A DNA stretch of 64,000 nt from Escherichia phage 4MG: sequence record NC_022968.1; one strand, written 5' to 3'. Made by a program: the position numbers and the translations under genes. Position 1 is the stretch's first letter. Each line of letters begins with the position of its first letter. Under the pieces are notes generated by a model. That model did no database searches and was not told the origin of the DNA. It saw nothing but the letters and a program-made list of their open reading frames with translations. Positions 12,295-60,132 of this stretch are shown here, piece after piece.

Positions 12295-12308
12295 GGGGCT
12301 TCGGCCCC
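12295..12308 (+). other. GGGGC-UUCG-GCCCC tetraloop hairpin after DNA polymerase stop
   Basis: Perfect 5-bp GC stem with UUCG loop; no U-tract. Confidence 0.4.
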
Positions 12309-12322
12309 TAGAGGAGAAAATT

Positions 12323-12526
12323 ATGTTAACTGATTGGATTTCATGCAAAGATGCCCTGCCTCAGGTAGGTAAATTGGTTTTAGTTGCCAGAGGTGAGGGT
12401 ATGTGGATTGCCTTCCTCTCGGAGGATGGACGCTGGGACGATGGTGATTATTTGGATAACATTGACGGCGTAACTCACTGGCAGGATCTTCCTGTTCCTC
12501 CAAGCCTGCTCGGAGATAAGGCATGA
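12323..12526 (+). CDS. hypothetical protein
   Basis: 67 aa ORF, AGAGGAG SD. Confidence 0.5.
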   Translation: MLTDWISCKDALPQVGKLVLVARGEGMWIAFLSEDGRWDDGDYLDNIDGVTHWQDLPVPPSLLGDKA

Positions 12527-12879
12527 AGGTAAAAGGCACTCAGACCACGGTGCAAACCGTGGATGTGGAACTGGGGGGTGATGCAATCAAGACTGTTGTG
12601 TATAGTCGGGAAATAGATTATCTGGCGAAAGCGCTTCAGGAAAAACTTTTGCACAAATTCTTACATAGTCTAGAACCGAAATTTACTGGTAGCCGTACAG
12701 TTCGTAAGGGATATGGACGATACGATGGTAAACTGGTTCTTGTCCATGTGGATGCCGACTGGAACTACCACAACAATGTTGGTGAGGATGAGGATATCCG
12801 TGCCTTGACAGATGAGGAAGAGGTCCTCTTTAAGATGATCTCTGGAGTTTCAGAGTATATCGAAAACCTCAAAAAATAA
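12523..12879 (+). CDS. hypothetical protein
   Basis: 118 aa ORF, ATGA overlap; followed by terminator. Confidence 0.5.
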   Translation: MKVKGTQTTVQTVDVELGGDAIKTVVYSREIDYLAKALQEKLLHKFLHSLEPKFTGSRTVRKGYGRYDGKLVLVHVDADWNYHNNVGEDEDIRALTDEEEVLFKMISGVSEYIENLKK

Positions 12880-12885
12880 TTGAAA

Positions 12886-12920
12886 AGCCCCTTGACTTCA
12901 CGGTTGAGGGGCTTTATTGT
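12886..12920 (+). terminator. rho-independent terminator
   Basis: 11-bp stem (with G-U) and 6-nt loop followed by TTTATTGTT directly after stop at 12879. Confidence 0.6.
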
Positions 12921-12948
12921 TATGGGAGTTAAATACTCCGGAGATGAT

Positions 12949-13143
12949 ATGAAGCTTTCACATTTTATTTATGCAGTGTTAGGCCTTATGGCCCTGACTA
13001 TGCTTACAACATTAGGTCTTGCCTACACAGCAGACTACCAACAACAAACTAACGATATCCTTGGTGGTGGTCTTGGCATGTTCATGCTTGAATTCTTCCT
13101 GCTTATTTTTGGCGGGATGATTGTTGATGCGTCTAACTGGTAA
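12949..13143 (+). CDS. small membrane protein (2 predicted TM helices)
   Basis: ATG at 12949 after GGAG; hydrophobic stretches; upstream part of track ORF lies in terminator hairpin. Confidence 0.4.
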   Translation: MKLSHFIYAVLGLMALTMLTTLGLAYTADYQQQTNDILGGGLGMFMLEFFLLIFGGMIVDASNW

Positions 13144-13153
13144 GGAGAAGAGA

Positions 13154-57909: not shown

Positions 57910-57911
57910 GA

Positions 57912-57943
57912 TAAAAATAAAGCCCTTATCACAAAATAAGGGC
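57912..57943 (-). terminator. hairpin + U-tract between lysis genes and terminase
   Basis: 8-bp stem GCCCTTAT/ATAAGGGC with 6-nt loop, then UAUUUUUAU on minus strand. Confidence 0.5.
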
Positions 57944-57951
57944 CTTGTCAA

Positions 57952-58242
57952 TCACTTTTTAGGATCAAATATGTTGCGAATATACTGCTGAAGGATGCGA
58001 AGTTTGCTACGATCATTTGCTCCGTCGAGGTTGTTCTTCTTCATGATCGCACTGTTAACCGAGTTGTCAGCACCATAAGGAAGAGGTGTAGGCTCAACAG
58101 GGTCAACCATAGCCGCAGCAGGAGGCTTTGCAAGGACTTCTGCTGGGTCAAACTTCTGCACCACTGGAACAACCTCAGGTGCATTTCTGCACCCGCTTAT
58201 AAGCGCTGTAGCAACCAGCACTGCGATTATCGTCTTTCTCAT
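57952..58242 (-). CDS. o-spanin (outer-membrane lipoprotein component)
   Basis: 96 aa; signal + lipobox LISGC; Pro-rich mature part; 4-nt overlap with i-spanin. Confidence 0.6.
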   Translation of the reverse strand: MRKTIIAVLVATALISGCRNAPEVVPVVQKFDPAEVLAKPPAAAMVDPVEPTPLPYGADNSVNSAIMKKNNLDGANDRSKLRILQQYIRNIFDPKK

Positions 58243-58643
58243 TTCAACCCCAGGCTCTCGTTATAAATATCCACAAAGTCATTATCCAGACCCTTCTTCT
58301 TTCCGTTATCAGAGTTTCGATAAGCGTCTTGCTTCTTGTCAAGCTCTGATTGCAGTTTTGCATTCTTTGCTTTCTCTTCCTCAAGTTGCTTACTTAACTC
58401 ATCAGAAGACTTCTGCTGGTTGTCTTTGTAGTCATGATTGGCATTCTTGTTTTCCTGTTGTTTGGCAGTCCACTTATCATCAGTATCTTTCACACCACGA
58501 TTGTAAGAAGCTGTGATTTGGTCATTGTACCAGTGCTTAGTATAAACCGCCCCGGAGAACAGGGCGATTGCTAAGATTGCTGCGATGACTAATTTAGTGT
58601 TGTTCCTGATAAAGGCAACCACCATTCTAACTACATCTATCAT
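58239..58643 (-). CDS. i-spanin (inner-membrane component)
   Basis: 134 aa; N-terminal TM; charged coiled-coil periplasmic domain; ATGA overlap with upstream gene. Confidence 0.6.
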   Translation of the reverse strand: MIDVVRMVVAFIRNNTKLVIAAILAIALFSGAVYTKHWYNDQITASYNRGVKDTDDKWTAKQQENKNANHDYKDNQQKSSDELSKQLEEEKAKNAKLQSELDKKQDAYRNSDNGKKKGLDNDFVDIYNESLGLK

Positions 58644-60064
58644 GAGATATCCCCATTTGATTCAATAAGACGTTCTATTCTGAGAAGAGTTTCTTCATCG
58701 TCAAGGATCTCAACCTGTGCATCATCATACGCGATCTTTGTTGGATCAAGCACGGTCACCTCAAGCAAAACAGCGCCCGGTTTGGAGAGTCTGTCGCCCC
58801 AACGTCCTGTTTTACCCTTCTCACCCCAAGACTTATAAACATCGTATGCTTCTTTCTCATCTACATACAGATTCATTACATCAAGGAATTCATCAGCAGG
58901 TTTTGTCTCCAGAAGCCCTACAGACTGGTTTGGGTTGGTTGCCTGCATCAGGTAGAAATTCTCTGCTGGACAAACACCCCATAACTTTGAGAAGTAAGGC
59001 CTGCCCGTATTCATACGGAGGCGTTGATACATAGAGAAGATGTTTTCCGGCTTTAACCCTCGGTATCGGCTGAACTGACCCTTTTCAGATTCCGTTGCGA
59101 TGCTGGAGATCATGTAATCACCCGCTGAATCCAGTTTATCAAATAATAGGTCAAATGAAAATGGTTTAGTTTCATTGAAAAGCTCTTCAACGTTTGTACC
59201 ATACATCCCACTCAGGTGTGCCTTGGCATCTTCCCACGATTCAATATTAAGACCTGTCGCTGCGATACCGAGCTTCATTGTTTCACGACGAGAGATCGTG
59301 TACCCACGGGCGCGGTATTTGTCTGAGCGAAGCATACTGATAATGGGGTAATCTGTGCCGGGATTAATCACCAGCACCTTTTGTGCTAAGTGCTTGAGGA
59401 ATCGGCTATCAAACTCCCATTTCTCGCTGGCAAAGCTGAAGGCACCCATATTGATCGTAAAGTCAAATTTATCGAAGATCGCCTGAGAATCCTGGAACAC
59501 ATCGAAAGCAATAACCTGCATCACCGGGGACGACTGATTGGTGAACATAACGCTCTTATCCGTCATACCGAGGTTGTAGATGTTGTCTGGTTTATTATCT
59601 TCAGTTGCCTTCTGGATAGCCTTGAATACATTCCCGTTTCTCTCCCGGAGCAGAGAATACAGCTTTGAAAGCTGAGATGCGGAGAGCGGGGTTGGTTGGC
59701 GCTCTTTCTTCTCACATACCAATGCGTTCACGTAATCTTTGTGGCAACCAGGGTTATCCAGTTCAAGGAAATAGACGAACGAACGTTTTGAATTGCCCCA
59801 GTTGTTACTTGTAGGGGTTAGGTCGCTGTCACCAATAAGTAGACCGCGATCAGTCATGTATGCGAGGAAGATCTCTAAGTTTTCCCATGATGGGAAGTAG
59901 AGGTCAAGGTCGTTGACTTCACGATTAGAGAACAGAGAGGTGAGCGTACCACCCGCAATACGGGCATCAAGACGCTTGAGGATCTCGTACACGCCCTTAG
60001 GGATCAGGCTGTTGAGGATATTGAATTCACGCTGGAAGTCTTCTTTTGGGTAAATATGAAGCAT
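58640..60064 (-). CDS. hypothetical protein with Pol-beta-type nucleotidyltransferase-like GG...DxD motif, in the endolysin position
   Basis: 474 aa; AGGTLTSLFSNREVNDLDL (GG-12 aa-DxD spacing as in CCA-adding enzymes); no lysozyme/amidase motif recognised by eye. Confidence 0.4.
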   Translation of the reverse strand: MLHIYPKEDFQREFNILNSLIPKGVYEILKRLDARIAGGTLTSLFSNREVNDLDLYFPSWENLEIFLAYMTDRGLLIGDSDLTPTSNNWGNSKRSFVYFLELDNPGCHKDYVNALVCEKKERQPTPLSASQLSKLYSLLRERNGNVFKAIQKATEDNKPDNIYNLGMTDKSVMFTNQSSPVMQVIAFDVFQDSQAIFDKFDFTINMGAFSFASEKWEFDSRFLKHLAQKVLVINPGTDYPIISMLRSDKYRARGYTISRRETMKLGIAATGLNIESWEDAKAHLSGMYGTNVEELFNETKPFSFDLLFDKLDSAGDYMISSIATESEKGQFSRYRGLKPENIFSMYQRLRMNTGRPYFSKLWGVCPAENFYLMQATNPNQSVGLLETKPADEFLDVMNLYVDEKEAYDVYKSWGEKGKTGRWGDRLSKPGAVLLEVTVLDPTKIAYDDAQVEILDDEETLLRIERLIESNGDIS

Positions 60065-60100
60065 GGTTTTCTCCTTTAGTTAGTTAACTATTGGAGTGTA

Positions 60101-60132
60101 CCAGAAAAAGAAAAGCCCCGCAAGAGCGGGGC
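60101..60132 (-). terminator. rho-independent terminator downstream of tRNA array
   Basis: Minus-strand GCCCCGC-UCUU-GCGGGGC followed by UUUUCUUUUUCU. Confidence 0.55.

Follow-up and report, generated by a model that had tools for sequence, protein, structure and literature searches.

Between the genes of bacteriophage T4, short RNA hairpins closed by a C-G pair and capped by the tetraloop UUCG have been described since 1988 (Tuerk et al., as cited in PMC8948821 and PMC3972237), and here we compare with them the recurrent C(UUCG)G hairpins in a stretch of 64,000 nucleotides (nt) from Escherichia phage 4MG (NC_022968.1), the whole of which is called the window below. According to PMC3972237 (citing Tuerk 1988 and d'Aubenton Carafa 1990), hairpins nucleated by a UUCG or GAAA loop are unusually stable and serve as rho-independent terminators; the extra thermal stability of the UUCG hairpin, seen as a block to reverse transcriptase and a raised melting temperature, is an experimental result (Tuerk 1988; Antao and Tinoco 1991, cited in the same paper). 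The 5' leader of the T4 gene 32 mRNA is given in PMC8948821 as an example of an mRNA-stabilising terminal hairpin. Nearer to the window stands rV5, the type phage of the subfamily Vequintavirinae, whose genome paper reports 20 predicted rho-independent terminators, five of them with CTTCGG; its terminator t109 reads GGGGCTTCGGCCCC (PMC3606486 Table S4). Terminators mapped by Term-seq have a median loop length of 4 (PMC12207403). In the T4-type phages RB49 and phi1, the promoter-early stem-loops (PeSLs) are conserved composites of about 100 bp, composed of a sigma-70 early promoter together with a stem-loop; they cluster in hyperplastic regions and mark the end-points of insertions and deletions (PMC2839356).

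By its nucleotide identity with Enterobacter phage EC152, Cronobacter phage GAP31 and Escherichia phage LNA4 (87-91%) and with Salmonella phage PVP-SE1 (ca. 83-84%), the window is part of the genome of a Seunavirus, an rV5/PVP-SE1-like myovirus of the Vequintavirinae. We consider it likely that its hairpins are generic, intercistronic, G+C-rich RNA hairpins capped by C(UUCG)G, of the sort carried by coliphages and their hosts, and that they act at the level of the transcript and not of the DNA. This kind of hairpin is already known, from T4 (1988) and, as predicted terminators, from rV5.

UUCG hairpins at the gene boundaries

A sequence-only reading had listed nearly identical hairpins at gene boundaries of the window, and all of its hairpin coordinates and variants proved correct on re-scanning. 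Our scan for perfect hairpins (stem of at least 5 bp, 4-nt loop) returned eight with a UUCG or CGAA loop; they are referred to below by the first position of the core.

12295-12308, + strand: GGGGC-UUCG-GCCCC, 6 nt past the DNA polymerase stop codon (12286-12288); -11 kcal/mol
23371-23394 (core 23374-23391), - strand: AAG-GGCUGUC-UUCG-GACAGCC-UUU, past the tail-fibre gene 23399-25243; -15.5 kcal/mol, z = -5.4
30170-30187 (core from 30172), - strand: AAGGGGC-UUCG-GCCCCUU, past gene 30193-32331, then UUUUCUCAUU; -12.7 kcal/mol, z = -3.7
39416-39435 (core from 39419), - strand: AAAGGGGC-UUCG-GCCCCUUU, past the tape-measure gene 39439-41832, then UUUUUUAUUG; -13.5 kcal/mol
44667-44682, - strand: GAGGGC-UUCG-GCCCUC, within the 130-nt tail-sheath leader; -13.6 kcal/mol, z = -3.75
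47300-47317 (core GGCCC-UUCG-GGGCC at 47302-47315), - strand: AAGGCCC-UUCG-GGGCCUU, between the convergent genes 47322-47621 (-) and 46895-47299 (+), with the U-tract UUUUAUUUU on the - strand side; -12.6 kcal/mol
48294-48311 (core from 48296), - strand: AAGGGGC-UUCG-GCCCCUU, past the tail-fibre gene 48314-50941; -12.8 kcal/mol
5050-5065, + strand: GAAUAC-UUCG-GUAUUC, A+U-rich, within the coding sequence 4594-5103; -5 kcal/mol, z = -0.7

For a chance origin through base composition, the simplest rival reading, we found no support. Eight were found against 0.46 +/- 0.75 expected from 200 dinucleotide-preserving shuffles, and the exact sequence GGGGCTTCGGCCCC is present four times (12295-12308 on the + strand; 30172-30185, 39419-39432 and 48296-48309 on the - strand) against 0.01 expected with one mismatch allowed, four copies being reached in none of 100 shuffles. 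No shuffle attained either of the observed values. The frequency, for which the sequence-only reading had proposed a motif scan, is thus far above the shuffled expectation; the shuffles rule out a chance origin of the recurrence, and the probability that we leave to base composition is negligible. UUCG is also the commonest tetraloop in the perfect-hairpin scan, is the most frequent loop of the sense-strand perfect hairpins that are rich in G+C (7 of 83), and, as C(UUCG)G, caps 7 of the ca. 15 strong hairpins obtained by folding the intergenic regions of the window. Hairpin counts as such are raised by the tail-fibre gene 48314-50941, whose coding sequence holds, between 48900 and 50100 (- strand), many short GGACC-NNNN-GGUCC palindromes; these look like the nucleotide trace of a putative collagen-like Gly-X-Y tail-fibre repeat.

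All eight hairpins are closed as C-UUCG-G, and all eight have UUCG on the mRNA-sense strand. Seven are intergenic and G+C-rich, with stems of 5-10 bp containing 5 G-C pairs, a 4-nt loop and folding energies of -11 to -15.5 kcal/mol; they start 2-6 nt past a stop codon, as they do in the relatives. The eighth, at 5050, is weak and lies in coding sequence, and its stability does not exceed that of shuffled sequence; it probably is not a functional element.

The strand on which the loop lies bears on a reading at the level of the DNA, in which the hairpins are palindromes forming cruciforms or binding proteins for replication, packaging or recombination. The palindromes are perfect, so that cruciform extrusion is possible, and T4 deletions that involve GGGC/GCCC inverted repeats are cited in PMC2839356. 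The loop, however, is asymmetric and oriented with transcription in every hairpin of the window and in all ten of the T4 hairpins described next, an orientation for which a palindrome acting as DNA would have no need; the stems of some orthologues rely on G.U pairs, which only the sense RNA can form (for instance GGGGGC/GCCCCU in the related locus L048), and position is linked to stop codons and U-tracts. We regard a DNA-level function as extremely improbable.

Bases 1-50000 of T4, where all genes are on one strand, hold ten C(UUCG)G hairpins, all sense and none antisense, six of them intergenic. One of these T4 hairpins lies between regA and gene 43 in an identical 18-mer, AAGGGGCUUCGGCCCCUU; another is the hairpin in that part of gene 60 which is annotated for translational bypass. 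The hairpins of T4 and of the window are alike in their short G+C-rich stems, their intercistronic position, their sense orientation and the presence of a U-tract at some sites and not at others, and the density of intergenic UUCG hairpins is 6 per 50 kb in T4 and 7 per 64 kb in the window. Apart from the affiliation of the phages (Vequintavirinae, not Straboviridae) and a G+C content of 47% against 34%, we see no difference in kind.

That U-tracts follow only some of the hairpins had been remarked in the sequence-only reading, and the number of U residues in the 10 nt past the last G-C pair confirms the split: 8 at 23374, 7 at 30172, 8 at 39419 and 8 at 47302, against 3 (weak) at 48296, 2 at 44667 and 1 at 12295. 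Intrinsic terminators have a G+C-rich stem of ca. 5-14 bp with a loop of 3-8 nt, as do all seven intergenic hairpins, and at least 5 U in the 8-10 nt directly 3' of the stem, as do only the first four sites; the hairpin at 39419 looks the strongest terminator among these. The hairpins at 12295 and 44667 (without U-tract) and at 48296 (UU only) differ from canonical intrinsic terminators; by analogy they may be likened to mRNA-stabilising terminal hairpins, which are stable, have no U-tract and occupy either the end of a cistron or the leader of one that is strongly expressed.

The sequence directly downstream differs as well. The polymerase hairpin at 12295 is followed by UAGAGGAGAA, without a U-tract, with the Shine-Dalgarno sequence GAGGAG 3 nt on and the next ATG at 12323. 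At 23374 the U-tract UUUUCUUU gives way to the Shine-Dalgarno sequence AGGAGG and the ATG of gene 21651-23354. At 48296 just UU precedes CUCAAGGAG, which holds a Shine-Dalgarno sequence 6 nt downstream, and then comes the ATG of gene 47635-48279, an arrangement found likewise in EC152, PVP-SE1 and the related locus L004. At these three sites the next ribosome-binding site adjoins the hairpin and leaves no space for a promoter, which means that none of the three can be a full stop.

Stems, loops and flanks among the relatives

Orthologous junctions were extracted by tblastn from as many as 25 relatives. EC152, the closest relative, retains all eight hairpin sites of the window in its complete genome. 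Among its UUCG hairpins whose stems have 4 bp or more, 18 of 21 are sense, and the G+C-rich intergenic ones are so without exception; the sense-strand scan gave 11 G+C-rich UUCG hairpins. Away from the sites of the window, EC152 has G+C-rich UUCG hairpins past the genes of the ribonucleotide reductase alpha subunit, a polymerase/exonuclease and a nicotinamide phosphoribosyltransferase, and at 17062, these likewise on the sense strand. In 23 IMG/VR loci that encode a related sheath protein, UUCG hairpins of at least 5 bp are sense in 39 cases and antisense in 5. No terminators are annotated in the GenBank records of EC152, GAP31 and Mydo within the stretches examined; only the supplementary table of the rV5 paper lists them.

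The junction past the DNA polymerase gene illustrates how structure is kept and sequence is not. A G+C-rich hairpin is present at 18 of 21 distinct junctions, 12 of the 18 having UUCG, and its stem varies (GGGGC, GGAUGCCC, AAACCGCC, UCCCCUC, GGGGAC and others). When 15 of these hairpins are aligned, 97.8% of the cells are paired, all 6 pairs show double-sided changes, and the covariation score is 1.03, against 0.21 in shuffles and 0.21-0.43 in slid controls. At 47302 the relatives have the stems GGCCC, GACCC/GGGUC and AGCCC/GGGCU, which are compensatory, under the loops UUCG, UCCG, CUCG and UUAG; at 44667 they have GGAGGC-UUCG-GCCUCC, GGGGGC-GCAA-GCCCCC and GGGC-UUUUU-GCCC, with two pairs changed on both sides; and at 23374 they have hairpins of other sequence. 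Ten relatives, with protein identities as low as 35%, retain the tape-measure hairpin at 39419, with UUCG in 8 and a U-tract in all 10. At orthologous sites the loop is mostly UUCG or UNCG; where UUCG is replaced the loops are UACG, UCCG, CUCG, UUAG, GCAA, AGAC or a run of U, mostly stable or near-UNCG. A natural single-base loop variant, GGGGC-UUAG-GCCCC, occurs at the orthologue of the 30172 site in the related locus L027 (ca. 9897-9914), where the flanking protein segment is 99% identical. The U-tract has a history of its own at each site: it is constant past the tape-measure gene, is never present in the sheath leader, and at the polymerase site flips between close relatives (UUUUUUCAU where the C-terminal segment of the polymerase is 93% identical).

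These comparisons bear on the possibility that the hairpins are specific recognition sites for an RNA-binding protein or ribonuclease of phage or host, for example a translational repressor, or an enzyme that reads GGGGC-UUCG-GCCCC and processes the RNA. Four copies are identical, three hairpins lie 2-9 nt upstream of a Shine-Dalgarno sequence, and a sequence-conserved stem that neighbours the hairpin in the sheath leader (described below) could be a protein or RNase III site. Typical substrates of RNase III, of the T7 type, comprise ca. 20 bp of double-stranded RNA, often with an internal loop; the UUCG stems, with 5-10 bp, fall short of this size, and the 15-bp hairpin of the sheath leader (44688-44721) comes closer. 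Orthologous stems, however, are unrelated, their loops include GCAA, AGAC, UACG and UUUUU, the single-stranded flanks are not conserved, and the 18-mer turns up again in T4 as well as in numerous other viral contigs. Because stems and even loops are interchangeable across orthologues, recognition by a specific protein or RNase is in our opinion very improbable.

The extent of similarity between copies bears on the question of a common origin. When the seven sites are aligned with 30-nt flanks, only the loop and the closing pairs are invariant and the flanks are unrelated. The exact 18-mer AAGGGGCTTCGGCCCCTT occurs in at least 120 stretches of other viral contigs in IMG/VR, at loci of 21-65% G+C, and in 71% of the matches listed at least 5 of the 8 nt that follow are T. 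The sequence-only reading had suggested a shared element; taken as a single repeat family or as a phage-specific signal, this is not supported, as the copies have only 14-20 nt in common, orthologous sites carry unrelated stems, and the same 18-mer is found in T4 and the viral contigs. On the same three grounds the hairpins are, to judge from sequence comparison, convergent copies of a generic, optimally stable design and not a family by descent. The C-G-closed UUCG hairpin would have been chosen as the most stable and fastest-folding short hairpin, which would explain why the same 14-18-mer arises repeatedly and independently. The 18-nt hairpin shared with T4 and other viruses may thus serve as an example of convergent evolution; the result raises no new question.

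Another rival reading takes the hairpins for mobile regulatory cassettes or recombination linkers like the PeSLs, providing short boundary homologies for modular gene shuffling, as was proposed for the cassettes of RB49 and phi1. The two kinds resemble each other in that GGGG...CCCC stem-loops recur at gene boundaries, have a role (putative in the window) in termination or attenuation and sometimes stand near a promoter, PeSL stem-loops being typically GGGG...CCCC, intergenic and assigned a terminator role (PMC2839356). The homology of the window with PVP-SE1 is interrupted at 12299, where the polymerase hairpin has its edge and PVP-SE1 carries extra DNA; the genes past the polymerase hairpin vary among close relatives; and in three rV5-like loci (L047, L048 and L054) TGNTAAAAT stands ca. 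13 nt upstream of the hairpin, in the order promoter plus stem-loop. The seven sites are nevertheless alike over 14-20 nt only, compared with ca. 100 bp in PeSLs, and no similarity extends past the hairpin. Unlike PeSLs, they are mainly in the conserved structural block: there the homology of the window with EC152 and PVP-SE1 runs unbroken through 6 of the 7 hairpins, the end-points of the high-scoring segment pairs with EC152 and PVP-SE1 meet a hairpin once, and synteny breaks mostly elsewhere, in the accessory early region. We therefore reject the single repeat family and judge a PeSL-like role very improbable.

The functional part of the sequence-only reading fared better than its shared element. 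Termination, attenuation and mRNA stabilisation, as a class of functions, fit all the sequence evidence, given the sense-strand UUCG, the proximity to stop codons, the four canonical U-tracts and the compensatory changes in the stems, and we infer that the generic transcript hairpins act in these ways. For RNase processing, which that reading had named as well, the sequences speak neither for nor against. Several points weigh against this interpretation. Three of the seven hairpins have no proper U-tract, a defining feature of intrinsic terminators, and their role is assigned by analogy only. ViennaRNA gives near-equal energies for the UUCG and CGAA orientations, so that the energetics of the strand bias rest on published thermodynamics and not on our computation. 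The covariation alignment was anchored on the best hairpin of each junction and is biased towards pairing, and the related loci, such as those yielding the count of 39 to 5, are not independent samples. Our literature search found no Term-seq or RNA-seq study of any phage of the Vequintavirinae.

Predicted terminators, promoter-like motifs and likely transcription units

The hairpins with a U-tract (23374, 30172, 39419 and 47302) would be intrinsic (Rho-independent) terminators for the host RNA polymerase, as they fit the sequence definition of such elements. Besides these four, the window has five terminator-like hairpins with other loops.

21624-21647: terminator AAAGGCUCCC-AAUC-GGGAGCCUUU, between the convergent + and - gene blocks
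41852-41881, - strand: terminator AAGCCGGGUUCC-UUUUCG-GGAACCUGGCUU, then UUUUAUUG; the loop is related to UUCG, and the rV5 orthologue is t050
51563-51596, - strand: 15-bp terminator with UUAU loop and U-tract, past the major capsid gene 51618-52631
57919-57946, - strand: terminator AAGGCCCUUAUU-UUGU-GAUAAGGGCUUU, then AUUUUUAU, upstream of the large terminase gene
60115-60132, - strand: strong terminator GCCCCGC-UCUU-GCGGGGC, then UUUUCUUUUU, separating the tRNA block from the first late gene

The last of these explains why the range covered by the sequence-only reading ended at 60132. Together the four UUCG and five other terminators could partition the 38-kb late block into units. Promoter-like motifs stand close to some of them and elsewhere in the block.

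30126-30134, - strand: extended -10-like motif TGATAAAAT, 36 nt past the 30172 hairpin and upstream of the baseplate-J-like gene 28591-30084
39383-39391, - strand: promoter-like motif TGATAAAAT, 25 nt past the 39419 hairpin; the next ATG is at 39357
57893-57901, - strand: motif TGGTAAACT, past the terminator 57919-57946 and upstream of the large terminase gene
46195-46203, 54738-54746 and 63096-63104, - strand: intergenic sense TGNTAAAAT motifs

The window has 9 matches to TGNTAAAAT, 7 of them on the - strand, and 5 of those 7 are intergenic. Three sense-strand TGNTAAAAT/TGGTAAACT motifs lie 17-36 nt downstream of terminator hairpins, and the one at 39383 is retained as TTATGATAAAATC in relatives. 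The rV5 paper proposes TggTAaAAtA as a late promoter and pairs terminators with it (PMC3606486 Table S4); TGATAAAAT at 30126 and 39383 matches this sequence. Past 30172 and 39419 transcription could begin anew at the extended -10-type promoter that lies 25-36 nt downstream, and we take TGATAAAAT at 30126 as a putative re-initiation promoter. At least three late units would have a TGNTAAAAT-type promoter motif just behind a terminator, and such terminator-promoter pairs suggest a division of the late genes into units. The value of the analysis is mainly practical and lies in a map that shows where transcription units of a Seunavirus are likely to end: the late block has nine terminator-like hairpins, four of which carry UUCG, and TGNTAAAAT/TGGTAAACT promoter-like motifs come after three of the nine. 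Such a map should be useful for annotation, for the engineering of phages that are therapeutic candidates and for the choice of short, strong terminators.

In the rV5-like loci L047, L048 and L054, a UUCG hairpin stands ca. 30-70 nt past the polymerase stop codon and ca. 13 nt downstream of GTGATAAAAT or GTGGTAAAAT. There the promoter motif precedes the hairpin, the reverse of the order in the window, so that the hairpin would be at the 5' end of the transcript.

Full termination would not suit every site. The hairpin at 23374 could be an attenuator that reduces the dose of the distal gene: the ribosome-binding site directly past it implies that termination is partial and that the next gene is expressed by read-through only. 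At 12295, 44667 and 48296 the lack of a usable U-tract would make the release of polymerase inefficient, and read-through is required. Hairpins at the 3' end of Escherichia coli messages, both repetitive extragenic palindromic (REP) sequences and terminators, block exonucleases, and by analogy with these and with T4 the hairpins without a usable U-tract are likely barriers to 3'-to-5' exonucleases that would protect the upstream message. The alternative for 44667 is that the hairpin stably caps a processed sheath mRNA near its 5' end. The roles given to these hairpins are the least secure part of our interpretation. Transcription and translation are coupled in bacteria, and with stop codons so near, a closely following ribosome could mask the 5' arm of a hairpin and thereby modulate termination.

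The tail-sheath leader and the surrounding genes

The leader of the tail-sheath gene (44603-44732, - strand, 130 nt) is highly conserved in sequence across 7 relatives, except for variable hairpin and loop regions. Besides the UUCG hairpin, it contains one further structure.

44688-44721, - strand: 15-bp hairpin CGGUUAUUGAUAAGC-N4-GCUUAUUAGUGAUCG, separated by 5 nt from the 44667 hairpin downstream of it

The stem of this second hairpin is near-invariant in the 7 relatives, with two single-base changes that both remain paired, and its 4-nt loop varies. All four of its non-Watson-Crick positions are G.U, which means that it folds only as the sense RNA. Past the 44667 hairpin a conserved GGUCAAUAACUG (44632-44643) is able to pair with the 5' arm of the 44688-44721 hairpin in an alternative structure. 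The element is present in a single copy both in the window and in EC152; in IMG/VR it is found in five contigs, all of this clade, the other 15-mer matches being unrelated coding repeats. A permissive Rfam search of the sheath leader gave no match at E <= 1. No U-tract follows the 44667 hairpin in the window or in the relatives compared.

The 44688-44721 hairpin could be a site for RNase III or for a protein, in which event the adjacent hairpin, with its UUCG, GCAA or UUUUU loop, would cap and protect the 5' end of a long-lived sheath-tube mRNA produced by processing. So viewed, the leader element is a putative processing or regulatory site that could boost the expression of sheath and tube. 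From there one might go on to assign all the hairpins without a U-tract to a post-transcriptional scheme that sets protein ratios in long late transcripts, with the sheath leader as its clearest case. This reading, with the processing or regulatory site in the leader included, we hold to be unlikely. The conserved, structured sheath leader is an only mildly new item, and the only part of this analysis that might repay experiments.

The sheath gene is the fourth gene past the TGGTAAAAT motif at 46195. A late promoter just upstream of 44667 was considered and rejected: the adjoining TATAA is not conserved (relatives have TATCGG), and the leader contains no TGNTAAAAT. An antisense sigma-70-like match at 44638-44666 (+ strand; TTGACC, 17 nt, TATTAT; 10/12) abuts the 44667 hairpin; its -10 part is only moderately conserved in relatives, and the match is probably fortuitous.

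The genes around these elements were assigned through homology to the EC152 annotation, and the tRNA genes by Rfam.

1 to ca. 21618, + strand: rIIA, rIIB, helicase, primase/helicase, DNA polymerase and small early/middle genes
9532-12288, + strand: DNA polymerase gene
21651-60064, - strand: late structural block with tail-fibre, baseplate, tape-measure, sheath, major capsid and large terminase genes
23399-25243 and 48314-50941, - strand: tail-fibre genes
28591-30084, - strand: baseplate-J-like gene
39439-41832, - strand: tape-measure gene
43190-44602, - strand: tail-sheath gene
51618-52631, - strand: major capsid gene
60179-63824, - strand: block of 20 tRNA genes (RF00005)

The 20 tRNAs are the sole Rfam 15 matches in the window that reach the gathering score, and their block has a counterpart in EC152. 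PVP-SE1 (locus L038) has insertions of ca. 0.9 kb within the primase/helicase gene (window ca. 8585) and the DNA polymerase gene (ca. 11940), and a further ca. 0.9 kb of additional DNA immediately past the polymerase hairpin (after window position 12299); these extra segments may be insertions of the homing-endonuclease or intron type. Beyond the part of the genome that corresponds to the window, the EC152 record carries at 141387-142319 (41387-42319 of locus L002) a gene that the depositors annotated as an 'anti-termination/anti-sigma factor'. If this annotation is correct, the putative factor could modulate read-through at the hairpin terminators.

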